Below are positions 1,201 to 16,653 of a DNA stretch of 16,653 bases, piece by piece. A model generated the notes under the pieces. That model was given only the letters and a program-made list of their open reading frames with translations. It ran no database searches and was not told the origin of the DNA. Positions within the stretch are counted from its first letter, which is position 1, and each line of letters starts with the position of its first letter. Origin of the DNA: a virus (lineage: Duplodnaviria > Heunggongvirae > Uroviricota > Caudoviricetes); IMG/VR virus record IMGVR_UViG_2869947659_000004. One strand, written 5' to 3'. A program made the position numbers and the translations under genes.

Positions 1201-2793
1201 ATGAATCAAAAATACCTCATTCGCATTGCAGAACTGGAATGCCAGCTCCGTCAGAAAGACCAGCAACTGAGTCTGGTTGAAGAGACGGAGGCCTTCCTGC
1301 GCTCTGCACTGGCCCGCGCCGAAGAAAAGATCGAAGAAGATGAACGGGAAATAGAACATCTGCGGGCTCAGATAGAAAAACTGCGCCGGATGCTGTTCGG
1401 TACCCGTTCTGAAAAACTGCGTCGTGAAGTTGAACAGGCTGAGGCCCTGCTGAAACAACGCGAACAGGACAGTGATCGTTACAGTGGGCGGGAAGACGAT
1501 CCGCAGGTTCCCCGCCAGTTGCGACAGTCTCGTCATCGTCGCCCGTTACCGGAGCATCTGCCCCGCGAAATAAATCGCCTGGAGCCAGAAGAAAGCTGTT
1601 GCCCGGAGTGTGGCGGTGAGCTGGATTATCTGGGGGAAGTCAGCGCAGAACAACTGGAACTGGTGAGCAGCGCTCTGAAAGTGCTCCGCACAGAACGGGT
1701 AAAAAAAGCCTGTACAAAATGTGACTGCATCGTTGAAGCACCGGCACTATCCCGTCCGATAGAGCGTGGTATCGCGGGCCCGGGGTTACTTGCCCGCGTG
1801 TTAACGGGAAAATACTGCGAACACCTGCCACTGTATCGTCAGAGTGAAATTTTTGCCCGTCAGGGTGTCGAACTGAGCCGTGCATTACTCTCCAACTGGG
1901 TTGACGCGTGCTGCCAGTTAATGACGCCGCTGAATGATGCTCTGTACCGTTATGTAATGAACAGCCGCAAAGTTCACACTGATGACACACCAGTAAAAGT
2001 GCTGGCACCGGGCAGGAAGAAGGCGAAAACAGGATATATCTGGACGTATGTCCGGGATGACAGGAATGCCGGTTCGCCAGAGCCTCCGACGGTCTGGTTC
2101 GCCTACTCACCGGACCATCAGGGTAAACATCCGGAGCAGCACCTTAGTCCCTTCCGGGGTATCCTGCAGGCAGATGCGTTTAATGGTTACGATCGGCTGT
2201 TCAGTGCCGAACGAGAAGGCGGCGCGTTGACGGAAGCAGGATGCTGGGCTCATGCGCGGCGCAAAGTCCACGATGTATATATCAGTACCAAAAGCGCGAC
2301 AGCGGAAGAAGCCCTGAAACTAATCGGTGAGCTGTACGCCATCGAGCACGAAATACGCGGGTTGCCGGTGTCTGAACGCCTGGCGGTCAGGCAAATGCAG
2401 AGTAAACCGCTACTGACTTCCCTGTATAAGCTGATGCAGGAGAAAGAACACACGTTATCGAAAAAATGCCGTCTGAGAGATGCGTTCCGGTATATCAGGA
2501 AGCACTGGGTTGCGTTGTGCAACTTCAGTGATGATGGTCTGGCTGAGGCGGATAATAATGCCGCGGAAAGAGCGCTTCGTGCAGTCTGTCTCGGAAAGAA
2601 AAACTTTATGTTCTTCGGCAGCGATCACGGTGGAGAGCGTGGTGCGCTACTGTACGGGCTGATCGGCACCTGCCGACTGAACGGTATCGATCCGGAAGCG
2701 TATCTGCGCTATATCCTGAGCGTACTGCCGGAATGGCCTTCCAACCGTGTTGACGAACTCCTGCCATGGAACGTAGCACTCACCAATAAATAA
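1201..2793 (+). CDS. IS66-family transposase TnpC
   Basis: 530-aa ORF with N-terminal coiled coil, CxxC…CxxC zinc-binding motif (CPECGGE…CTKCDC) and the IS66 transposase core; RBS-distance start after tnpB. Confidence 0.9.
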   Translation: MNQKYLIRIAELECQLRQKDQQLSLVEETEAFLRSALARAEEKIEEDEREIEHLRAQIEKLRRMLFGTRSEKLRREVEQAEALLKQREQDSDRYSGREDDPQVPRQLRQSRHRRPLPEHLPREINRLEPEESCCPECGGELDYLGEVSAEQLELVSSALKVLRTERVKKACTKCDCIVEAPALSRPIERGIAGPGLLARVLTGKYCEHLPLYRQSEIFARQGVELSRALLSNWVDACCQLMTPLNDALYRYVMNSRKVHTDDTPVKVLAPGRKKAKTGYIWTYVRDDRNAGSPEPPTVWFAYSPDHQGKHPEQHLSPFRGILQADAFNGYDRLFSAEREGGALTEAGCWAHARRKVHDVYISTKSATAEEALKLIGELYAIEHEIRGLPVSERLAVRQMQSKPLLTSLYKLMQEKEHTLSKKCRLRDAFRYIRKHWVALCNFSDDGLAEADNNAAERALRAVCLGKKNFMFFGSDHGGERGALLYGLIGTCRLNGIDPEAYLRYILSVLPEWPSNRVDELLPWNVALTNK

Positions 2794-2908
2794 GCGTCAA
2801 TACGGTGCTCCGTTGACGCTTACTATCGTATTGATTGATCTGCATCAAATTAACGTAAAAGCAACTTCAGATAATACAAATCAGCAACACTGAATATGGG
2901 GAAACATT

Positions 2909-3109
2909 ATGTCATCAAAGAACAGAACCCGCAGAACAACAACCCGCAACATCCGATTTCCAAACCAGATGATTGAACAAATTAACATCGCTCTTGATCT
3001 GAAAGGTTCAGGAAACTTTTCAGCGTGGGTTATTGAAGCCTGCAGGAGAAGGCTGGCAACAGATGCAACGCATCTGCGCCCGGCCAGCATGAAAAATAAC
3101 GAGAAATGA
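2909..3109 (+). CDS. ylcI: YlcI/YnfO-family (DUF3950) small prophage protein
   Basis: 66-aa ORF MSSKNRTRRTTTRNIRFPNQMIEQINIALDLKGSGNFSAWVIEACRRRL…, recalled as the DLP12 ylcI-type protein found near lysis/packaging genes of lambdoid prophages. Confidence 0.55.
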   Translation: MSSKNRTRRTTTRNIRFPNQMIEQINIALDLKGSGNFSAWVIEACRRRLATDATHLRPASMKNNEK

Positions 3110-3240
3110 ACGTTCGGTTACAGGAGCAGGTACCCACTGTCCTCCAACAATATTTCATCTTCATATCCGACGGAACAAGACTTACCCTGCCGGGATGTAC
3201 AGAATAACAACAGAGTGATAATTAATTTCTGATGAAATAA

Positions 3241-5038: not shown

Positions 5039-5572
5039 TTATCTGTCGATGTCCCAGCACGCCAGCGCACTTTCCTGGTCTCGCCGGGATACCTGACCGT
5101 AGCAATTATTTGAGCGGATACGGCAGTCTCTGCCACCGTCCTTAATCCACCAGCGAATCGCTTCGCATGCTCCCCTGCGGTCACCAGCATTAATCCGTCT
5201 GTAAAACGTCGACGGGAAACACTTACCGGGGCCAATGTTATAGGGACAAAATGACGCGATACCCGCTTTCTGGGGTTCGGTCAGCGGCACTTTAATATTG
5301 CGCTCCACCCATGCCAGCGCCTTATCACGCTCAATGGCGTTGACCTGGTCGCATTTTTCCTTCGACAACTTCATGCCCGGGACGACAGGTTTACTATCCA
5401 CCAGGATGGCACCGCGGCAGATGGTCCAGATACCCGCGCCATCACGGTATGCCGTGGTGTGGTTACCTTCCTTTTCATCCAGAAACTGGTCGAGGATTTC
5501 AGGCGCAGGCGCACCTGCGGCAATCAGCGCCAGAACGGCAGCCGACAGGCCGTATTTGATTTTGGTGTTCAT
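5039..5572 (-). CDS. R: SAR endolysin (phage lysozyme, GH24) with N-terminal signal-anchor-release domain
   Basis: 177 aa; the Ala/Gly-rich weakly hydrophobic N-terminus (GLSAAVLALIAAGAPAPE) is followed by a T4-lysozyme-type catalytic region (…EGNHTTAYRDGAGIWTICRG…). Recalled as near-identical to Qin RrrQ. Confidence 0.9.
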   Translation of the reverse strand: MNTKIKYGLSAAVLALIAAGAPAPEILDQFLDEKEGNHTTAYRDGAGIWTICRGAILVDSKPVVPGMKLSKEKCDQVNAIERDKALAWVERNIKVPLTEPQKAGIASFCPYNIGPGKCFPSTFYRRINAGDRRGACEAIRWWIKDGGRDCRIRSNNCYGQVSRRDQESALACWDIDR

Positions 5573-5622
5573 GGATATTTATCAGGGTTTATCGATTTCA
5601 AATCCCTGGATATGTTAAGTCT

Positions 5623-5967
5623 TCAGGCCAGCGGTGGAGTCTTCAGAGAACCAGTAATTATTCCCGGTAGTTTTCCTCTGTAGGTTATCAACACATCCTG
5701 CGCCTCTAAAATTACGGGGCGCTTTTCCGGCAACGGACCATCCCCTTCACATAACCCGGCAGCAACATCCATGAAAAACTGCTTCGCCTGCTTTTTCGCC
5801 TCAGCTTCGTAAAACTCCAGCGTGGCATCTTCAGTACGGTCAAGACTAATCGCCACATCTGGCAACAACAGTGACGGATACCCACCAATTTCCAGTGCCA
5901 CAGTAACAGTAATCTTATTCGGGTAATTATTTATCCCTTTAACAACCAGTTCGTATTTTTTCTTCAT
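5623..5967 (-). CDS. DUF1327 (YdfR-like) prophage protein between holin and endolysin
   Basis: 114-aa soluble protein in the position occupied by ydfR between essQ and rrrQ in the Qin prophage; assignment is from recall. Confidence 0.6.
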   Translation of the reverse strand: MKKKYELVVKGINNYPNKITVTVALEIGGYPSLLLPDVAISLDRTEDATLEFYEAEAKKQAKQFFMDVAAGLCEGDGPLPEKRPVILEAQDVLITYRGKLPGIITGSLKTPPLA

Positions 5968-5971
5968 CGCT

Positions 5972-6187
5972 TTACTCTCCCCGCGCCGCCTTACGACGGT
6001 CCTCTCTGATTTTGAAATACAGGTTAGTCAGATATGTCAGCAGCCCAAACAACAGACTCCCCAGCACGCCTATTGCCGCCCACTGAGACGGGGAAACCCT
6101 GTCCAGCAACTGCAGGAACCAGTAGCCCGTTCCCACCGCTGACGTGGTGTATGACACACCTGTTGTGATTTTTTCCATCTGGTACAT
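5972..6187 (-). CDS. S: Class II holin, phage-21 S-like pinholin with dual start (71/68 aa)
   Basis: [71 protein letters not shown]: two TMDs, S21-like C-terminus, Met1/Met4 dual-start motif, SD GGGAG upstream. Confidence 0.9.
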
Positions 6188-6263
6188 ACCCCGTCTCCCG
6201 CAATCCGGAAGCTCACAACAATATAAAGACCACCGGCACACACCGATGGTCCCTTGCGCATGC

Positions 6264-6509: not shown

Positions 6510-6616
6510 GGGATTTTCTCGCTGAAAGGGGTTGTTAAGGAGTAACGGGTTCTTCGGGTTTGCTTCCGGCTGACTGAACCGCCCCGAGTTTCCTGGAGAG
6601 TGTTTTATCTGTGAAC

Positions 6617-7507
6617 TCAGGCTGCCAGATCATCGTTTCCGATGGAAGCATAATAAGCTTTTTCTGCTTCTGCCGGAGGGATGTGGCCCAGCCTTTCCAG
6701 CAATCGTCGATTATTATACCAGTCCACCCACGTGAGTGTGGCCAGTTCCACTTCTGCACGGTTTTTCCAGCTCTTACGGTGTATTACCTCCGCTTTGTAA
6801 AGACCATTGATGCTCTCCGCCATCGCGTTGTCATACGAGTCGCCTGTACTTCCTGTTGATGCCAGTAATCCGGCTTCCTTAAGCCGCTGTGTGTAGGCCA
6901 GCGATACATACTGAGAACCTTTATCACTGTGATGGACCGTGCCGGACGGTCGACGGGCCCATAACGCCTGCTCCAGAGCATCCAGCACGAATGTCGTTTC
7001 CATGGACGATGAGACCCTCCACCCCACGATGTATCCGGCAAACACATCAATAATGAACGCCACATAGACGAAGCCCTGCCATGTGCTGACGTAAGTAAAA
7101 TCAGCCACCCACAGCTGGTCAGGTCGTTCTGCCACGAACTGACGGTTTACGCGGTCGCCTGCGGCAACGGCTTTCCGGCTGATGGTCGTACGGACCTTTT
7201 TACCCCGGAGAACGCCGGCAAGTCCCATAACCGCCATGAGACGTGCCACAGTGCATCTGGCCACTCTGATACCTTCCCGTAACAACTGACGCCAGACTTT
7301 ACGCACACCGTATACCTGATGATTCCCATCGTATACGCGCAGTATCTCTTTCTTCAGCCAGTCATCGCGCTGCGCACGGGCACTGCGTTTATCAGGATGA
7401 TGTCGCTGTTGCTGACAGTGGTAATACGTTGACGGGGCAATATGTAGTTCACTGCATACCGGTCCGACCCCGTACAGCTTACGCAGCTTATCCAGCAGTG
7501 GCATCAC
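6617..7507 (-). CDS. IS3-family transposase OrfB (DDE integrase core)
   Basis: Same translation as 1..888 (+); overlaps orfA by 4 nt, consistent with an OrfAB frameshift fusion. Confidence 0.9.
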
Positions 7508-7821
7508 TGGCGGTCGAACTCCGCCTTCGCAAAATAAGCGGAAGCCTGGCGAAGGATATCGTTACTGCGGCGCAGTTCACGATTTTCACGTTCCAGCTCT
7601 TTCAGACGCTGACGTTCAGCGGTGGTGAGCCCGCCATCACCGCCTCCGGTATCCCGCTCATGCTGGCGTACCCAGACACGCAGAGTCTCCGGTGTACAGC
7701 CAATCTTTGGGGCAATGGAACAAATTGCCGCCCACTGTGAGTCATATTCGCCCTGACTTTCCAGAACCATACGAATCGCCCTCTGACGGACTTCGGGGGA
7801 AAAACGAGTATTTTTAGTCAT
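7504..7821 (-). CDS. IS3-family transposase OrfA (HTH)
   Basis: [57 protein letters not shown]…; 54-nt leader after the left terminal repeat. Confidence 0.9.
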
Positions 7822-7875
7822 CCTGTTTACCTCTTTCTCAGGGAGTTTAGTCTCCAGGATTCCCGGGGCGGTTCA

Positions 7876-8160: not shown

Positions 8161-8659
8161 TTATGCGGCTGCTCCAGCTTTGTTTGCTTTAACTTCCACC
8201 GTATCAATAAGTACAGGGTAGGTTTCTGCACTACCTGTAATATCCGTAATGACAAACCTGTTGAGTCCATTAGCAGTATTGGCCCATTTCACCAGGTCAA
8301 ACGCCTGTCCATCCACACCATCAAGCACCGGAGTAACATTAATGCTGTTACTGCCCTTAAATTTAAATGCAAGCGTATGCCAGTCATGGTCGAATGCGCC
8401 AAACGTGCCAAGTTCTTTTTGTTGATTAACTGTATGATGGTATGCAACATTAATACTGGCTTTATCTGTCTGGACAAAGAAAGAACTCAGATGGCCTTCA
8501 CCACCCTCACCCGGCCATTCCGCTATTCGCCAGTACAAACCAAAGGCATACTTGTTTCTGGTTGTCTCAAGATTGACGTTTTCGGGGATTTTAAACCGGA
8601 CAGCAATTTCCCCGCCTTTTTCCAGTAAAAGTTTTGCCTTGTCTGCAGCAATATCACAG
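8161..8659 (-). pseudogene. nanS-p-like sialate O-acetylesterase, C-terminal segment (split by IS600)
   Basis: Frame continues exactly from 9924..11293 once IS600 and one copy of its target-site duplication are removed; the 174-aa track ORF starts inside IS600. Confidence 0.75.
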
Positions 8660-8723
8660 TGAGGTAGCCTGAGTTTAACGGACACTCCTTCCTGAAATAG
8701 AATGGCATCAGAAGGAGCTAATA

Positions 8724-9026
8724 ATGAGCAGAAAAAACCAACGTTACTCTAAAGAGTTCAAAGCCGAAGCTGTCAGAACGGTTCTTGAAAATCAACTTTC
8801 GATCAGTGAAGGCGCTTCCCGATTATCCCTTCCTGAAGGCACTTTAGGACAATGGGTTACCGCCGCCAGAAAAGGGCTCGGTACTCCTGGTTCCCGCACG
8901 GTGGCTGAACTGGAATCTGAAATTCTGCAACTGCGTAAGGCGTTAAATGAAGCTCGCCTTGAGCGAGATATATTAAAAAAAGCAACAGCGTATTTTGCAC
9001 AGGAGTCGCTGAAAAATACGCGTTAA
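8724..9026 (+). CDS. IS600 transposase OrfA
   Basis: MSRKNQRYSKEFKAEAVRTVLENQLSISEGASRLSL…; HTH plus leucine zipper typical of IS3-family OrfA. Confidence 0.9.
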   Translation: MSRKNQRYSKEFKAEAVRTVLENQLSISEGASRLSLPEGTLGQWVTAARKGLGTPGSRTVAELESEILQLRKALNEARLERDILKKATAYFAQESLKNTR

Positions 9027-9061
9027 TCGAACAATGGCGACAACAATTTCCCATTGAAGCG

Positions 9062-9880
9062 ATGTGTCAGGTATTTGGTGTATCCAGGAGCGGTTATTAC
9101 AACTGGGTACAGCATGAACCCTCAGACAGAAAACAAAGTGATGAGCGGCTAAAACTGGAGATTAAGGTGGCACATATCCGCACTCGCGAAACATATGGAA
9201 CCCGGCGGCTCCAGACGGAGCTGGCAGAGAATGGCATCATCGTTGGTCGTGACCGACTGGCACGTCTTCGTAAGGAGCTAAGGCTACGCTGTAAGCAGAA
9301 ACGTAAGTTCAGAGCGACTACGAACCCGAACCACAATCTGCCAGTTGCGCCAAATCTGCTGAACCAGACGTTCGCTCCTACAGCACCAAATCAGGTCTGG
9401 GTGGCGGACCTGACGTATGTTGCCACACAGGAGGGATGGTTGTACCTCGCTGGCATCAAAGATGTTTATACGTGCGAAATTGTCGGCTACGCCATGGGAG
9501 AGCGCATGACAAAAGAGCTGACAGGTAAAGCCCTGTTTATGGCGCTCAGGAGCCAGCGCCCACCTGCCGGGCTAATCCACCACTCTGATCGAGGTTCACA
9601 GTACTGCGCATACGATTACCGGGTCATACAGGAGCAGTCTGGTCTGAAAACATCAATGTCGCGTAAAGGTCACTGTTACGACAACGCTCCGATGGAAAGC
9701 TTCTGGGGAACGCTGAAAAATGAGAGCCTGAGCCACTATCGTTTTAATAACCGGGATGAAGCCATCTCAGTAATACGGGAATACATTGAGATTTTCTACA
9801 ATCGTCAGCGTCGTCACTCTCGTCTGGGGAATATCTCCCCGGCAGCCTTCAGGGAAAAATATCATCAGATGGCTGCTTAA
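9062..9880 (+). CDS. IS600 transposase OrfB (DDE)
   Basis: 272 aa with the IS3-family integrase core (…IHHSDRGSQY…, …CYDNAPMESFWG…). Confidence 0.9.
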   Translation: MCQVFGVSRSGYYNWVQHEPSDRKQSDERLKLEIKVAHIRTRETYGTRRLQTELAENGIIVGRDRLARLRKELRLRCKQKRKFRATTNPNHNLPVAPNLLNQTFAPTAPNQVWVADLTYVATQEGWLYLAGIKDVYTCEIVGYAMGERMTKELTGKALFMALRSQRPPAGLIHHSDRGSQYCAYDYRVIQEQSGLKTSMSRKGHCYDNAPMESFWGTLKNESLSHYRFNNRDEAISVIREYIEIFYNRQRRHSRLGNISPAAFREKYHQMAA

Positions 9881-9923
9881 AAAAAGAACAAATGGTAGTG
9901 TCCGCTATTGCCAGTACACCTCA

Positions 9924-11293
9924 CAGTACATTGACCAGGATTTCGCGCTGTTATTTTTCTCAATTCGCAGAGCTTTATTGCCGCTGTCATCAACCAGTGT
10001 GCGTCTGCCATACATACCGTCCCAGCCATAAGGTTTCAGCTGATTGTCTGTAGCTTTTTTGGCATCGTAAAAAATTACAGACTCTGAGGTGGTAACCGGC
10101 CTGTCTGGAACAACCACCCCGGCAGTACCATTAACAAACGCAGAAGACTTACCCGCGCAGCTCAGAATCGCCGTTGCCAGACGGTCGGAAATAATCCCAC
10201 GGCGAGCCCATGAACTGAAATGGCTCGCCCTGTCCTGTGACGTCCAGGTGGCTGAGCTGTCACGCCATTTCGAACCGTAATAACCGATACCCGGAATGTC
10301 CGGGTCTTCTTCCGGTTTGTTCGTCGGCACATTCACCCCGTTCTCATCGGTCATGAACGGTACGAAATGGATATTCTTTTCCGTTTTATTTTTATAGCTG
10401 CCGTACACCGTCTGGTACGTGGATTCGTTCTTCTGCTTCCAGAAATACGTCGTGTCCCCGCATATCCAGGGAACACCGCCAGCAGAGCCACCGACGCACT
10501 GGCCTGCCATATCCGCCAGGTCTGCACGGAATTTATCAACCAGCGCACCAAACTGTGCGGCATGATTTGCCGGCGTACCGCCAAAATCAAATTCCCCCTG
10601 CATCCACACCACGGCAAACAGCACATTTTTCGGGTTCTTCTCCAGTGCCGCTTTTGTTCGACCGATAAGGTCCTTATACAGCGGCTTGTCCACACCCCAG
10701 CGGGTTGAATTCTCCGAGGCACCACTCGCGTCACTGTATGTGCCATCAGCTCCGGTGGTGAACGCTGAACCACCACGACAGCACGGAACCAGCAGAATGC
10801 CCGCATTCGCCGGTATAAACGGCAGCAGTTTTTTGGCGATATGCAGCCCCTGCCCCACGGTTCCGTACTGCCCCTTTGACAGGTCCGCTTTCGGATGGTT
10901 AAGACGGCTCATGTCCTGCACATCATGCAGACAATGGTCCGCCGGAATGATGTCGTTATATTTGCATGCTGCACCGCCCGGTGTCACCGTACTGCGACGC
11001 GCCAGTTGCTTAATACGCGGGTCCGGACGGTCATATGTCCCCGGCAGCGGAAGGCCTTCACCATACGACATGCCGTTTGACTGCCCTGCCAGAACCACAA
11101 CAAAGTAATACTCCGGGTCGCTGGTGGCGCTGATTACTGCACCTTCTGCTGCAATCGCCTGCATCAGAGTATAAGGGGTTATGGCCACCGGACTACCAAA
11201 CGGCTGCCAGCCCTCTTTCAGTTTATGTGTCAGCTTTTCCGCAAGATCTGACGGCGACGCCGCCCTGACAACATCATAGTGTTTAAAAGCCAT
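9924..11293 (-). pseudogene. nanS-p-like sialate O-acetylesterase (prophage NanS-p / SASA-SGNH hydrolase), N-terminal 456 codons
   Basis: N-terminal prophage-type domain followed by the SGNH/SASA motif VVVLAGQSNGMSYGEG. Located between the tRNA cluster and the lysis cassette, as nanS-p is in Stx-type prophages. Interrupted by IS600 after codon 456. Confidence 0.75.
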
Positions 11294-11476
11294 GAATCCT
11301 CCCGGCCGGGATAATATTGTGAGTAAAATGAGGAGCGGGCTGAAGTCCGGAAGTTACAGGACAATGGCAGAAGAGAGACGACAGCCCGCAATTCGAAAAA
11401 GACCGCGCAGTTGCGCAGAGTGATTACTATGGGGTATTATTCGCCAGCTGAAATATTACTTCACGTTTTATTGTTT

Positions 11477-11512
11477 ATTCCTTGCCGCCCGCGTCTCCCA
11501 GCGCGGGCTTTT
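11477..11512 (+). terminator. Hairpin followed by a T7 run in the tRNA-to-nanS-p spacer
   Basis: GCCCGCG-TCTCCCA-GCGCGGGC followed by TTTTTTT on the plus strand; a second GC hairpin follows at about 11519..11545. Confidence 0.4.
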
Positions 11513-11737
11513 TTTGCCCACAAGAAAGCCCCTCCGGAGAGGGGCTGGAGAGTGGCGCTATGTGCCATTGCATGGTGCCGGGTGCCTCCCGGTGAATTCA
11601 GTACCAGCACCTGAATCCGCGATTATCCCATATACCTACTCGCTGATTGCCCCTCCGCACAGGGGGATTCACCATGCCAGTTTCTTTTAACAAACTCCCC
11701 GCAAACCAGACAACAGTCAACCGTCTGAATTGTGAGA

Positions 11738-11766
11738 CATTTAAAAAAAAAGCCCGCAAAAGCGAG
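11738..11766 (-). terminator. Rho-independent terminator downstream of the tRNA cluster
   Basis: On the minus strand: GCTCGC-TTTT-GCGGGC followed by T9. Confidence 0.55.
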
Positions 11767-11782
11767 CCAGGGAAAATAAGTG

Positions 11783-11859
11783 TGGCGCGTTGTACTGGAT
11801 TCGAACCAGTGACCGATTGCTTAGAAGGCAATTGCTCTGTCCGGCTGAGCTAACAACGC
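11783..11859 (-). tRNA. tRNA-Arg (anticodon UCU)
   Basis: Cloverleaf read by hand: acceptor GCGTTGT/ACAACGC, anticodon loop CTTCTAA, T-arm ACTGG-TTCGAAT-CCAGT, encoded CCA. Confidence 0.85.
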
Positions 11860-11872
11860 ATGATGCAGATAA

Positions 11873-11949
11873 TGGACCGCCATCGGGGACTTGAACCCCG
11901 CGCAGCCAGCTTCGAAGGCTGGCGCTCTTTCCTGATGAGCTAATGGCGG
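11873..11949 (-). tRNA. tRNA-Arg (anticodon UCG)
   Basis: Acceptor CCGCCAT/ATGGCGG, anticodon loop CTTCGAA, T-arm CGGGG-TTCAAGT-CCCCG, encoded CCA. Confidence 0.8.
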
Positions 11950-11956
11950 TATGTGA

Positions 11957-12032
11957 TGGTGGCCCTTGCTGGATTTGCACCAGCGACCTGGCGATTATGA
12001 GTCGCTCGCTCTCACCACTGAGCTAAAGGGCC
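11957..12032 (-). tRNA. tRNA with CAU anticodon (Ile2/Met type, ileZ-like)
   Basis: Acceptor GGCCCTT/AAGGGCC, anticodon loop CTCATAA, T-arm GCTGG-TGCAAAT-CCAGC, encoded CCA. First of three in the order CAU / Arg / Arg, as in the ileZ-argN-argO cluster of Stx-type phages. Confidence 0.8.
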
Positions 12033-12072
12033 GGGAGCCGCATAATAACGACGCGTAATTAATTCTTCAATA

Positions 12073-13104
12073 TCATCCGTTCTGGCTGACTAAATCCTGT
12101 ACTTCCCGAACCGTCTGCTCAAAACGTTCAGTCTCCAGCTCAACGCCAATTGCACGACGCCCGAGCGCCAGTGCCGCTTTCACTGTCGAACCCGACCCCA
12201 TGAAAAAATCTGCAATCAGGTCACCCGGACGACTGCTAGCGCTGATTATCTGCTGCAGCATTTCTGCCGGTTTTTCGCACGGATGTTTCCCGGGATAGAA
12301 CTGCACCGGTTTATGCGTCCACACATCGGTATACGGCACCTGCACCGTCACGCCAAAATACCGCCGCAGATGTTTATATTCACTCAGCAGCTCCGCATAC
12401 TGCCGGTTCAGTGAGGTATACGTATCCACCAGCTGGTGGTGGAGCTTTTCCAGTTCACCACGCCGATGCTTCTCTTCTGCCACCCGGGCAAACAGCGCCT
12501 GTAATTTCAGATAATCGCTTTCATTCGGCAACTGCCACTGACTGGCACTGAACCAGTGCGACACCATGTTTTTCTTTCCTGTGGCATCTGCAATCTGTTT
12601 TGCCGTTATCCCCAGGGCAGCTCGCGCATCACGAAAGTAAGAAATCAGCGGGGCCATCACATGCTGTTTCAGTGCACTGCCCTTCACCGCATACCCGGCA
12701 TCTTTCGGACGATACGGCCCCTGATAATGTTCCGCGAACAGAATGCGCTCTGTGGCGGGGAAATACGCCCGCAGGCTTTCCTTGTTGCATCCGTTCCAGC
12801 GTCCGGACGGCTTCGCCCAGATAATATGGTTCAGCACACTGAAGCGTTCACGCATCATGATTTCGATATCAGATGCCAGGCGATGACCACAGAACAGGTA
12901 AAGACTTCCGGCAGGTTTCAGCACCCGCCAGAACTGCGCCAGACACTGGTCCAGCCACTTCAGGTAATCATCGTCGCCCTTCCACTGGTTATCCCAGCCC
13001 TCAGGCTTCACTTTAAAGTACGGCGGGTCCGTGACTATCAGGTCAACAGAATTTTCGGGTAACGACCAGATAAATTCCAGGCAGTCGGCGGGTAATGACT
13101 CCAA
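12073..13104 (-). CDS. DNA methyltransferase, beta-class (N6-adenine or N4-cytosine; motif IV DPPY before motif I FxGSGST); 5' end abuts IS1
   Basis: …SVDLIVTDPPYF… near the N-terminus and …DFFMGSGSTV… near the C-terminus. The first 4 to 5 codons (MESLP) lie inside the IS1 terminal repeat, so the native start was probably lost. Confidence 0.85.
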   Translation of the reverse strand: MESLPADCLEFIWSLPENSVDLIVTDPPYFKVKPEGWDNQWKGDDDYLKWLDQCLAQFWRVLKPAGSLYLFCGHRLASDIEIMMRERFSVLNHIIWAKPSGRWNGCNKESLRAYFPATERILFAEHYQGPYRPKDAGYAVKGSALKQHVMAPLISYFRDARAALGITAKQIADATGKKNMVSHWFSASQWQLPNESDYLKLQALFARVAEEKHRRGELEKLHHQLVDTYTSLNRQYAELLSEYKHLRRYFGVTVQVPYTDVWTHKPVQFYPGKHPCEKPAEMLQQIISASSRPGDLIADFFMGSGSTVKAALALGRRAIGVELETERFEQTVREVQDLVSQNG

Positions 13105-13105
13105 C

Positions 13106-13501
13106 TTACTGATAGTGTTTTATGTTCAGATAATACCCGATGACCTTGTCATGCAGCTCCACCGATTTTGAGAACGACAGTGACTTCCGTCCCAGCCTTG
13201 CCAGATGTTGTCTCAGATTCAGATTATGTCGCTCAATGCGCTGAGTGTAACGCTTGCTGATAACGTGCAGCTTTCCCTTCAGGCGTGATTCATACAGCGG
13301 CCAGCCATCCGTCATCCATACCACGACCTCAAAGGCCGACAGCAGGCTCAGAAGACGCTCCAGTGTGGCCAGAGTGCGTTCACCGAAGACGTGCGCCACA
13401 ACCGTCCTCCGTATCCTGTCATACGCGTAAAACAGCCAGCGCTGACGTGATTTAGCACCGACGTAGCCCCACTGTTCGTCCATTTCAGCGCAGACAATCA
13501 C
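13106..13501 (-). CDS. insB: IS1 InsB
   Basis: [28 protein letters not shown]… is the characteristic InsB sequence. Confidence 0.95.
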
Positions 13502-13527
13502 ATCACTGCCCGGTTATATGCGCGAGG

Positions 13528-13803
13528 TTACCGACTGCGGCCTGAGTTTTTTAAGTGACGTAAAACCGTGTTGAGGCCAACGCCCATAATGCGTGCACTG
13601 GCGCGACATCCGACGCCATTCATGGCCATATCAATGATTTTCTGGTGCGTACCGGGCTGAGAGGCGGTGTAAGTGAACTGTAGTTGCCATGTTTTACGGC
13701 AATGAGAGCAGAGATAGCGCTGATGTCCGGCAGTGCTTTTGCCGTTACGCACCACGCCTTCAGTAGCGGAGCAGGAAGGACATCTGATGGAAATGGAAGC
13801 CAC
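13528..13803 (-). CDS. insA: IS1 InsA
   Basis: [43 protein letters not shown]… is the characteristic InsA sequence. Confidence 0.95.
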
Positions 13804-13858
13804 GCAAGCACCTTAAAATCACCATCATACACTAAATCAGTAAGTTGGCAGCATTACC

Positions 13859-14106
13859 CGCTCGACGAGTGGAAACCAAAACGGTTCAGTCTCCCAATAA
13901 CAAACACTACCCTGGTGAAATACGGAAAACTAGGATACATCGTTCCAAGACCACAAAAAATTCGTGGGCGTTGGCTGATAGATCGCCGAGCAGTATTTGT
14001 TGGGCCTGGTGAAACGGGAATTGCGCCGGAAATTCATACTGGCGATGATGATGCACTGAAGGAGATTTTAACTCATGTCACCGAGGCCACGAAAAAACAG
14101 CACTGA
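13859..14106 (+). pseudogene. xis: Excisionase (lambda Xis-like), start codon removed by IS1
   Basis: …PLDEWKPKRFSLPITNTTLVKYGKLGYIVPRPQKIRGRWLIDRRAV… resembles lambda Xis (…LTLQEW…VRRWVRECRIFPPPVKDGREYLF…). No start codon exists after the IS1 end, and the 3' end overlaps int as in lambda. Confidence 0.6.
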
Positions 14107-14899
14107 CGTAGCCGGTCTTTACGAAAAGTTTGATCGCAGAACTGGCAGAGTTTACTACCAGTATAAAAATCCTGTGACTGGAAAATTTCACGGACTCGGA
14201 ACAGACAAAGGTAAGGCAGAAAAAATCGCTTCCACAGCCAATCAGCGAATAGCTGCAGCAGAAGCTGAATATTTCATGCGCAAAATTGATGAAAGTCCGT
14301 CAGCAACAAAACGTCGGGGTATCAGATTAAAGGCATGGGTTGATCGATATCTGAAAATACAGGACACGCGACTGAAAAATGGAGATATTGCAGCTACAAC
14401 TCACAAAGAAAAAACTCGAATGGCTGCATACCTGGTTTCCCGTCTGGGAAACCACCCATTGAAAGAACTGGAAGTAAGAGACTTTGCATTAATACTGGAT
14501 GAGTGGCTGGATAAAGACATGGTCAGCACAGCGAGAGTAAATCGTGGATTATGGGTTGATATTTATAAAGAAGCACAGCATGCAGGGGAAGTTCCTCCTG
14601 GATGGAATCCTCCGGAGGCTACCCGTAAACCGATCCCTAAAGTAACCAGAGCCAGGCTCACCATGGAAGACTGGCAAAAAATTTACAATGCAACGCCTGA
14701 AAAACACTTTATCCGTAACGCAATGCTTCTTGCGATTGTTACTGGTCAGCGCCGTGATGACATTTGCCACATGCGTTTTTCAGATGTGTGGAACGAACAC
14801 TTGCATATCACCCAGGGAAAAACCGGAATGCGTCTGGCGTTACCGCTTACACTACGCTGTGATGCCATTGGGATAACGTTAAAAGAAGTTATTGATGGG
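14075..14899 (+). pseudogene. int: Phage integrase (tyrosine recombinase, lambda Int family), 3'-truncated by IS600
   Basis: N-terminal arm-binding and core-binding regions are present, but the ORF runs straight into the IS600 left end at 14900, so the C-terminal catalytic region including the Tyr is missing from this window. Confidence 0.85.
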
Positions 14900-15413
14900 T
14901 GAGGTAGCCTGAGTTTAACGGACACTCCTTCCTGAAATAGAATGGCATCAGAAGGAGCTAATAATGAGCAGAAAAAACCAACGTTACTCTAAAGAGTTCA
15001 AAGCCGAAGCTGTCAGAACGGTTCTTGAAAATCAACTTTCGATCAGTGAAGGCGCTTCCCGATTATCCCTTCCTGAAGGCACTTTAGGACAATGGGTTAC
15101 CGCCGCCAGAAAAGGGCTCGGTACTCCTGGTTCCCGCACGGTGGCTGAACTGGAATCTGAAATTCTGCAACTGCGTAAGGCGTTAAATGAAGCTCGCCTT
15201 GAGCGAGATATATTAAAAAAAGCAACAGCGTATTTTGCACAGGAGTCGCTGAAAAATACGCGTTAATCGAACAATGGCGACAACAATTTCCCATTGAAGC
15301 GATGTGTCAGGTATTTGGTGTATCCAGGAGCGGTTATTACAACTGGGTACAGCATGAACCCTCAGACAGAAAACAAAGTGATGAGCGGCTAAAACTGGAG
15401 ATTAAGGTGGCAC
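14900..15413 (+). mobile_element. IS600, second copy, left 514 bp only; interrupted by IS2
   Basis: Identical to 8660..9173 of the complete copy; identity stops at 15413 where the IS2 terminal repeat begins. Confidence 0.9.
14964..15266 (+). CDS. IS600 transposase OrfA (copy 2)
   Basis: Identical 100-aa translation to 8724..9026. Confidence 0.9.
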   Translation: MSRKNQRYSKEFKAEAVRTVLENQLSISEGASRLSLPEGTLGQWVTAARKGLGTPGSRTVAELESEILQLRKALNEARLERDILKKATAYFAQESLKNTR

Positions 15414-15424
15414 TGGATTTGCCC

Positions 15425-16330
15425 CTATATTTCCAGACATCTGTTATCACTTAACCCATTACAAGCCCGCTGCCGCAGATATTCCCGTGGCGAGCGATAA
15501 CCCAGCGCACTATGCGGATGCCATTCGTTATAATGTTCGAACGCCTCTGCAAGGTTCTTTGCTGCCGTTAACCCGTCTGGTTTGGGCATGATACTGATGT
15601 AGTCACGCTTTATCGTTTTCACGAAGCTCTCTGCTATTCCGTTACTCTCCGGACTCCGCACCGCCGTGTTCTTCGGTTCAAGTCCCAACATCCGGGCGAA
15701 CTGGCGTGTTTCATTAGCCCGGTAGCATGAACCATTATCCGTCAGCCACTCCACTGGAGACGACGGAAGATCGTTGCCGAAGCGGCGTTCCACCGCTCCC
15801 AGCATGACGTCCTGTACTGTTTCACTGTTGAAGCCGCCGGTAGTCACCGCCCAGTGCAGTGCCTCACGATCACAGCAGTCCAGCGCGAACGTGACACGCA
15901 GTCTCTCTCCGTTATCACAGCAGAACTCGAACCCGTCAGAGCACCATCGCTGATTGCTTTCTTTCACGGCCACTCTGCCTGTATGTGCCCGTTTCGATGG
16001 CGGTACAGCAGGTTTTCGCTCAAGCAACAGCGCATTCTGGCGCATGATCCGGTAAACACGTTTGGCATTGATCGCAGGCATACCATCAAGTTCTGCCTGT
16101 CTGCGAAGCAGCGCCCATACCCGACGATAACCATACGTGGGCAGCTCTCCGATAACATGGTGTATACGGAGAAGCACATCCGTATCATCAGTGTGACGAC
16201 TGCGGCGGCCATCCATCCAGTCATCGGTTCGTCTGAGAATGACGTGCAACTGCGCACGCGACACCCGGAGACAACGGCTGACTAAGCTTACTCCCCATCC
16301 CCGGGCAATAAGGGCGCGTGCGCTATCCAC
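15425..16330 (-). CDS. insD: IS2 transposase InsD (OrfB)
   Basis: [43 protein letters not shown]…, 301 aa. Confidence 0.95.
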
Positions 16331-16653
16331 TTTTTTGCCCGTCCATATTCAACGGCTTCTTTGAGGAGTTCATTTTCCATCGTTTTCTTGCCGAGCAGGC
16401 GCTGGAGTTCTTTAATCTGCTTCATGGCGGCAGCAAGTTCAGAGGCAGGAACAACCTGTTCTCCGGCGGCCACAGCAGTAAGACTTCCTTCCTGGTATTG
16501 CTTACGCCAGAGAAATAACTGGCTGGCTGCTACACCATGTTGCCGGGCAACGAGGGAGACCGTCATCCCCGGTTCAAAGCTCTGCTGAACAATTGCGATC
16601 TTTTCCTGTGTGGTACGCCGTCTGCGTTTCTCCGGCCCTAAGACATCAATCAT
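16288..16653 (-). CDS. insC: IS2 InsC (OrfA)
   Basis: [56 protein letters not shown]…; the start codon is at the last three bases of the window. Confidence 0.95.

Follow-up and report, generated by a model that had tools for sequence, protein, structure and literature searches.

The 16,653-nt stretch of viral DNA analysed here (IMG/VR record IMGVR_UViG_2869947659_000004, referred to below as the window and numbered from its first letter) carries on its minus strand a late region of the type found in Shiga toxin (Stx)-converting phages, in which a 489-nt interval (11294–11782) separates the last of three tRNA genes from the start of a nanS-p-like esterase gene. This interval is very probably an unoccupied cargo (moron) slot followed by a known pair of convergent small RNA (sRNA) genes, lying in a dead lambdoid prophage. 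The reading is carried by the homology of both flanks to Stx2 phages, by breakpoints at the edges of the missing toxin cassette, by the Rfam family membership and conserved fold of one of the two RNAs, and by the identity of the body of that sense-strand RNA to an Hfq-bound RNA of E. coli O157 Sakai.

Results

The cargo slot and the missing stx cassette

A preliminary description of this DNA, made from its letters, had recognised the minus-strand order tRNA(CAU), tRNA-Arg(UCG), tRNA-Arg(UCU), nanS-p-like esterase, pinholin and endolysin, with a gap of about 490 bp between the tRNA genes and nanS-p and no open reading frame (ORF) for StxA or StxB. ARAGORN, Rfam and domain searches agree with that order, and the gap measures 489 nt. 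Searches for stxA and stxB over the whole window, using blastn (word size 7) and tblastn with the Stx1 and Stx2 cassettes and proteins, returned only noise (best E = 0.09). The likeness of the layout to the late module of Stx phages also proved to be true homology, as the flanks align to those of the Stx2a phage Stx2_95 up to the edges of its toxin cassette. Window positions 13090–11742 are 94.4% identical to the methylase, tRNA and terminator flank of Stx2_95, and positions 11739–10152 are 86.4% identical to the sequence 3′ of its stx2B. In that phage the two blocks are separated by the 1332-bp stx2AB cassette (stx2 promoter region, stx2A and stx2B), and in the window by 2 nt; stx2AB is therefore precisely absent, with breakpoints at 11742 and 11739 that are accurate to about ±10 nt and are the same against phage 933W. 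These breakpoints define the unoccupied slot (11739–11742, minus strand). The residual stx promoter or leader envisaged in the preliminary description was not found, nor was any coding remnant, when the window was searched with Stx1 and Stx2 sequences.

Immediately 3′ of the slot lies a conserved 23-nt box, TTTTTAAATGTCTCACAATTCAG (11725–11747, minus strand), which contains the −10-like hexamer TTAAAT and forms the left edge of the sRNA module. Its boundary was defined from 83 homologous loci anchored on the motif TCTCAATTCAG, in which conservation begins abruptly at TTTTTAAATGTCTCACAATTCAG across 34 distinct upstream contexts; the same motif, with TTAAAT before it, is also found 3′ of stx1B, of stx2B and of other cargo. 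The 5′ side of the slot is the intrinsic terminator of the argO-like tRNA gene (11741–11768, minus strand; 7-pair stem at 11751–11768 and a T-run to 11741), which is conserved in Stx2 phages, in the stx-free Sakai prophage Sp4 and in a prophage of O55:H7. A hairpin previously placed at 11738–11766 is real and is this terminator. In related phages the cargo sits between the argO terminator and the box that opens the sRNA module. Here the two abut, so that nothing is inserted between them and nothing needs to have been lost.

Cargo other than stx was also observed at this position. In IMG/VR loci such as L123, L061 and L101, the slot after argO holds a 143-aa ORF resembling TerB (PF05099), a 108-aa ORF without a Pfam match, or both ORFs together with two further small ones. 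The left junction of this non-stx cargo, TATCTGCG, is common to the junction of the stx2 cassette.

Prevalence of the empty slot and closest relatives

The region of the tRNA genes and the interval is 91–98% identical to known prophages, so the layout is not due to chance. Using a 951-nt probe that runs from the methylase end through the tRNA genes and the interval to the nanS-p start, we found a contiguous match in 1024 of 5426 complete E. coli genomes, a count that may include inserts of up to ~975 bp. By this measure, up to about a thousand of the genomes have a comparable arrangement without stx. The best of these matches is 97.8% identical and stx-free, and the O55:H7 prophage matches at 97.8%. 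In IMG/VR, an exact 29-mer from the sRNA core occurs at least 121 times; this sample is not random. Among the 121 matches listed, argO lies 103–106 nt 5′ of the core in 33 (105 nt in the window), stx is present 5′ of the core in 7, and about 37 have 640–860 nt of other cargo. In the remainder, the content 5′ of the core is larger or of another kind, or the sequence there is too short for classification.

In a phage collection, the best of the full-length interval matches inspected are stx-free and 87–90% identical over the whole interval; a partial record of Nil3, grouped with these stx-free best matches, reaches 96.8% over 90% of it. The Stx2a phages among the matches listed are either 88% identical over 90% of the interval or 96.4% identical over its 3′ two-thirds only. 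These matches show mosaic exchange inside the sRNA module. All of the closest full-length relatives that were inspected are stx-free, and in Sp4 the spacing is likewise 489 nt.

These comparisons bear on the possibility that stx was once present and that its cassette was removed precisely, either through homologous exchange with a phage lacking stx or through recombination of short repeats at the ends of the cassette. Loss of stx from lysogens is a known phenomenon, both flanks of the slot share homology with those of stx2, mosaicism of the late region is indicated by the 96.4% matches over the 3′ two-thirds of the interval, and the pentamer ATCTG occurs at both junctions of the stx2 cassette. 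However, no stx promoter, leader or gene remnant and no scar is left behind, and the flanks are 94% and 86% identical to an Stx2 phage versus 97–98% to stx-free prophages with the 489-nt spacing. The empty state is moreover the commonest among the IMG/VR matches listed. As for the pentamer, we rejected it as an excision repeat because a repeat of only 5 nt will arise by chance and carries no information. We consider precise removal of a former toxin cassette very unlikely. Since the closest relatives inspected lack stx and share the spacing, a lineage with nothing in the slot is far more likely than loss, and of the two origins offered in the preliminary description, a toxin-free relative and a locus in which the toxin cassette was never present or has been lost, the first is the one that we retain. 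The same description had reasoned that a lineage that is simply stx-free would have relatives with this spacing and no toxin, and no kinship to stx flanks; the relatives do have this spacing without toxin genes, but the flanks are homologous to those of stx.

A sense-strand sRNA of the STnc100 family

On the late-gene strand the box is followed by an sRNA of the STnc100 family (Rfam RF02076) at 11516–11706 (minus strand). The match is full length and untruncated (model positions 1–206; 139.4 bits, gathering score 47), and a terminator scan placed the 3′ terminator stem at 11527–11546 (minus strand). Members of this family also lie directly 3′ of stx2B in Stx2_95 and 933W, and 3′ of stx1B in VT1-Sakai and POCJ13. 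STnc100 has been described ~75 nt downstream of the stx2 operon (PMC12370729) and as overlapping the Hfq-bound sRNA EcOnc27/sRNA103 (PMC12711010); consistent with the latter report, the EcOnc27 northern probe falls within the STnc100 copy of Sakai Sp5. The family fold comprises several hairpins, a long-range closing stem and a 3′ intrinsic terminator, and is reproduced by the minimum free energy fold of the window copy. In a consensus fold of 8 diverged STnc100 copies, compensatory changes were found in 6 of 37 pairs.

Comparison with Sp4 identifies the RNA more closely. Its interval (positions 2670–3158 of fetched locus L133) is, like that of the window, 489 nt long, and 475 of the 489 positions are identical. 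All 14 differences lie outside interval positions 59–260, which form the sRNA body and are free of differences, and 12 of the 14 are located in the tail of the terminator, in the convergent RNA or in the nanS-p leader. By our own arithmetic, the chance of finding no difference in a body of ~200 nt would be ~0.001 if differences were spread uniformly; purifying selection or a recombination mosaic could account for this pattern. In addition, the published northern probe for EcOnc05 matches window positions 11614–11648 exactly. Because the body is identical to that of Sp4 and the probe matches exactly, we identify the sense-strand RNA of the window as EcOnc05.

The sizes reported from northern and Hfq cross-linking and analysis of cDNA (Hfq-CRAC) experiments are ~222 nt for EcOnc05 in Sp4 and ~235 and 247 nt for EcOnc27 in Sp5 (PMC4104026 Table S2). 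By our own arithmetic, these sizes place the 5′ ends of the RNAs near the TTTTTAAATGTCTCACAATTCAG box, and the full sense transcript of the window is probably about 215 nt long, starting near 11733. Whether its 5′ end would be a primary start or a processing product is evenly balanced.

Tandem arrangements of the module were also observed in some E. coli genomes and phages: loci L009 (1945–2622), L010 (1967–2624) and L033 each contain two STnc100-family modules in tandem, each opening with a CACAATTCAG box.

The content of the interval had earlier been summarised as terminator-like hairpins. Terminators are indeed present, with 6 terminator-like sites found in the scan versus 1.6 expected, including one just 5′ of nanS-p (11403–11418, minus strand) that overlaps the −35 region of a plus-strand promoter-like site. 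Moreover, the interval contains no credible ORF: those of 20 aa or longer use alternative starts and/or overlap structured RNAs or tRNAs. This abundance of hairpins without coding potential is what would be expected if the interval were an inert spacer, with only terminators between the tRNA genes and nanS-p. Such a spacer would not, however, carry a full-length match 92 bits above the Rfam threshold, a structure maintained by compensatory changes, or the very sequence of RNAs for which Hfq cross-linking and northern signals are on record in Sakai, and the 14 differences from Sp4 would not all be expected to spare the body. An inert spacer is hardly conceivable, and the interval instead encodes a known convergent sRNA pair in addition to its terminators. 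Likewise, the single hairpin proposed at 11477–11545 resolves into two convergent terminators, one on the minus strand (11527–11546) and one on the plus strand (11487–11508).

A predicted convergent RNA on the plus strand

The second RNA of the pair is a predicted sRNA of ~70 nt and of EcOnc08 type at 11446–11515 (plus strand), placed there by its terminator, its fold and a published Hfq peak. The plus-strand terminator (11487–11508) and its T-run put the RNA end at 11515, and the fold z-score is −2.8. The EcOnc08 Hfq-CRAC peak of Sp4 maps to window positions 11441–11513 and so coincides with the RNA predicted from sequence. Sequence comparison points to a promoter-like TTGCGC-N18-TATTAT at 11411–11440 (plus strand). 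Across 22 variants of the plus-strand RNA, the promoter is conserved, the 5′ part of the transcript is variable and a UUGUUUAUUCCUUGCC-like core is kept, while the terminator stems vary with compensating changes.

In 933W the convergent RNA is AsxR. Its promoter (L007, 3294–3330) and the site at 11411–11440 share the GCGCAGTTGCGCAG −35 region and the same spacing to the −10 element. Beyond the promoter, AsxR and the EcOnc08-type RNA have unrelated transcribed sequences, as though different sRNA bodies had been exchanged downstream of a common promoter. Membership of the plus-strand RNA in the AsxR/AgvB/EcOnc03 family was rejected, as the covariance models RF02702 and RF02703 had no match in 11200–12100 at E values up to 1, whereas 933W scores 88 bits with the same tool. 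The conserved ~42-nt 3′ region of that family (…GTATCTCATGCWATTGCCCGAACCCAYTCGGGC) is likewise not shared by the plus-strand RNA. Given its AsxR-like position and promoter and its lack of a family match, we regard the plus-strand RNA as a positional analogue of AsxR and not as a member of its family. A weak match to OmrA-B scored 25 bits, short of the gathering score of 40, and was put down to chance.

The Hfq peaks of EcOnc21 and EcOnc42 have their equivalent at 11350–11435 (plus strand), as mapped through Sp4 from the coordinates of PMC4104026 Table S2. The northern size reported for this stretch is ~271 nt (PMC4104026), which indicates a longer form starting antisense inside nanS-p. Sp4 was used for mapping because the EcOnc05 probe lies inside its published peak there; the Sakai coordinates of PMC4104026 at Sp5 are ~135 nt lower than in the current record, and the mapping of EcOnc42 in Sp15 is approximate only. 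EcOnc15 of Sp15 was considered as the convergent RNA and rejected, as it lies between Q and stx1A and is thus part of the pR′ leader.

Convergent sRNAs between a moron slot 3′ of pR′ and a conserved phage ORF were described in Sp3, 4, 5, 9, 10, 11, 15 and 17 (Tree et al. 2014, PMC4104026). The window has the same arrangement, with its convergent pair lying between the cargo slot and a nanS-p-type ORF, and both of its RNAs fall on published Hfq peaks of Sp4.

Comparison with named phages and prophages

Sp4 is stx-free and has the same order as the window: ileZ1-argN1-argO1, EcOnc05 with EcOnc08/EcOnc21, and ECs_1088, a nanS-p homologue, with the convergent RNA at the same place in the interval. 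Outside the interval, identity drops to about 82%. Sp4 also retains the antiterminator and other genes 5′ of the tRNA genes as well as an intact esterase gene, whereas the window lacks Q and pR′ and its nanS-p is split.

In Stx2 phages the order is ileZ-argN-argO, stx2AB, EcOnc27 (STnc100) with AsxR, nanS-p, S and R. The tRNA trio, argO terminator, box, STnc100 sRNA, nanS-p leader and lysis genes of 933W, Sp5 and Stx2_95 are homologous to those of the window. The central part of the sRNA of 933W, however, is only 71% identical or cannot be aligned, and AsxR occupies the position taken in the window by the EcOnc08-type RNA. The Stx1 phages VT1-Sakai (Sp15) and POCJ13 have the box after stx1B and then, as in the window, an STnc100 sRNA, an EcOnc08/EcOnc42-type RNA and nanS-p. 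By BLAST they match the window only from 11677 onward, with VT1-Sakai 87.6% identical. Unlike the window, they carry stx1AB and have neither the tRNA trio nor the methylase gene upstream.

A further likeness, drawn from its description, is to PasD of enteropathogenic E. coli E2348/69 (Pearl Mizrahi 2021), a prophage sRNA encoded directly 5′ of a sialate esterase gene. A structural relationship between PasD and STnc100 has been reported (Zhu, Shabalina and Storz 2026, bioRxiv 10.64898/2026.05.13.724894).

Of the features of the Stx-phage late module, then, the tRNA trio is present in the window, as are nanS-p, holin and endolysin genes, but nanS-p is split by an insertion sequence (IS) and a second IS precedes the holin gene. 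The features that are absent are stxA and stxB, and Q with pR′.

The tRNA genes

Exactly three tRNA genes were called by ARAGORN, all on the minus strand and each also called by Rfam: an ileZ-like tRNA(CAU) gene (11957–12032, 1 nt different from ileZ of 933W), an argN-like tRNA-Arg(UCG) gene (11873–11949, 4 nt different from argN) and an argO-like tRNA-Arg(UCU) gene (11783–11859, 1 nt different from argO). A sigma-70-like promoter 5′ of the trio (12042–12070, minus strand; TTGAAG-17-TATTAT, 9 of 12 consensus matches) occupies the place equivalent to that at which pT is annotated in 933W.

The ileZ-like tRNA(CAU) has a T-to-G change at position 55 of its T-loop, a normally invariant position (GGTGCAAATCC versus GGTTCAAATCC). 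Among the fetched loci, TG at positions 54–55 is found in this genome only, and the other 86 copies have TT. With this private change, the ileZ-like gene may be a decaying tRNA gene.

Late genes and IS erosion

The nanS-p gene is present as two fragments, assigned by domain search and separated by an IS. The N-terminal fragment (9905–11293, minus strand; 462 aa) carries the DUF1737 and SASA domains and is cut by the IS, and the C-terminal fragment (8161–8685, minus strand) carries DUF6645. Between them lies an IS600-like element of the IS3 family (8659–9923, plus strand) with ORFs of 100 and 272 aa. By tblastn, residues 1–478 of 933W NanS-p correspond to window positions 11293–9929 and residues 479–636 to positions 8655–8191; the insertion thus cuts nanS-p cleanly, with residues 478 and 479 of the 933W homologue falling on either side of the element. 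Over the DUF6645 part, identity to 933W is only 44%. An exact search of one genome per species with the nanS-p/IS junction gave no match.

The lysis block (5039–6241, minus strand; domain search) comprises genes for a P21-type holin (5972–6241), a DUF1327 protein (5623–5967) and a lysozyme (5039–5572). A DUF1378 gene between nanS-p and the holin gene is interrupted by an IS629-like element at 6575–7875. IS629-like sequence occurs as two identical inverted copies (1–930 and 6575–7504), 94% identical to Sakai IS629 and each carrying an ALIL frameshift pseudoknot.

On the other side of the tRNA genes, a DNA methylase gene (12073–13104, minus strand) lacks its first ~41 nt, and an IS1 end stands in place of the lost start. 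The junction sequence has the IS1 terminal repeat GGAGTCATTACC at its end, and the first 41 nt of the gene lie outside the homology to Stx2_95. The IS1 itself (insA and insB; 13106–13803, minus strand) lies between the methylase gene and the integrase end of the prophage, where the order (12073–14902) is int, a small ORF, IS1 and methylase, the integrase being of lambda type and truncated. No Q gene is present in the window, and the 5′-truncated methylase gene directly abuts the IS1. As the IS1 abuts this truncated gene and an integrase fragment lies beyond, the early region, Q and pR′ are gone; the arrangement implies an IS1-associated deletion that would have taken out the whole early region together with Q and pR′. 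A related draft genome (L006) has the same IS1 junction and an intact integrase gene.

An IS66-family transposase gene (530 aa) and an IS2-like element (ORFs of 121 and 301 aa) occupy positions 1201–2793 and 15425–16653. Five IS types are therefore present in 16.6 kb (IS1, IS600-like, IS629-like, IS66-family and IS2-like). Such an IS load is typical of Shigella. In CP026766.1, which is 100% identical over the whole window, the element adjoins potD and potC. Of the late-region elements, only the tRNA genes and the two convergent sRNA genes have escaped interruption.

Discussion

Reading the interval as an empty moron slot followed by a convergent sRNA pair leads to a picture of how the locus might work. 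Its two sRNA genes end at back-to-back intrinsic terminators. From the late-gene strand would come a structured STnc100-family sRNA of ~215 nt, a homologue of EcOnc27/sRNA103, and from the opposite strand an EcOnc08/EcOnc21-type RNA, made as a ~70-nt form from a promoter homologous to that of AsxR and as a longer form of ~271 nt running antisense across the nanS-p start. In this host, promoters of their own or processing at the conserved box would yield the RNAs independently of the Q gene and pR′ deleted with IS1, and the RNAs would act with Hfq in trans on host mRNAs or sRNAs.

Several observations weigh against this picture. As a single sequence, the sense sRNA folds barely better than its shuffles (z = −1.5). 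A scan for a sigma-70 promoter of the sense sRNA gave only the −10-like TTAAAT in the box, with no conserved −35 element, and the plus-strand promoter has 8 of 12 consensus matches, which is under the threshold of the scanner. Expression of the sRNAs in this host is predicted from sequence, and with Q and pR′ gone, any contribution of the late transcript is lost. The sole functional effect that we found in the literature on EcOnc05, EcOnc08 and STnc100 is that of overexpressing the Sp5 homologue sRNA103 on fimZ and espA. Finally, the empty site may also be compatible with an ancient, precise replacement by recombination.

Some of these points would favour a different fate for the locus, in which the sRNA genes are intact but silent relics, whose transcription would have relied on the transcript of the tRNA or late genes and on antitermination by Q, which the IS1 deletion removed. 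The missing Q and pR′, the lack of a strong sigma-70 promoter 5′ of the sense sRNA and the private change at position 55 of the ileZ-like tRNA, a hint of relaxed selection, all fit this view. On the other hand, the identical RNAs of Sakai were obtained from lysogens without induction (PMC4104026), the tRNA genes still have in front of them a promoter-like site that could feed read-through, and AsxR, whose promoter is homologous to that of the plus-strand RNA, was mapped to a primary 5′ end (PMC4104026). We therefore think it unlikely that the pair is silent, and favour an unoccupied slot followed by sRNA genes that may still be expressed. A more ambitious proposal is that the host kept the sRNAs as chromosomal regulators after the death of the phage, and that the ~70-nt RNA represents a further class of AsxR-like sponge or regulator, sharing the AsxR promoter but with a variable 5′ end and a UUGUUUAUUCCUUGCC core; we put this forward only as a tentative and rather unlikely idea.

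Earlier reports already cover the layout, where the sRNA pair lies and how it relates to the stx slot (PMC4104026; PMC12711010; PMC12370729; bioRxiv 10.64898/2026.05.13.724894). Two minor aspects appear mildly new when judged by sequence: the perfect conservation of the sense sRNA inside an IS-eroded remnant, and a promoter that the EcOnc08-type RNA seems to share with AsxR.

In conclusion, the window presents the unoccupied state of the Shiga-toxin slot, and stx-free prophages of this kind are common and have been described in E. coli O157 itself (Sp4). In practical terms, the seemingly "empty" interval deserves annotation as a pair of sRNA genes, STnc100/EcOnc05 and the EcOnc08-type convergent RNA, and the locus should not be taken for one that once held toxin genes. 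Although of little importance beyond correct annotation, it provides one more case of sRNAs that stay intact in a prophage remnant without Q, pR′ or a working esterase gene.

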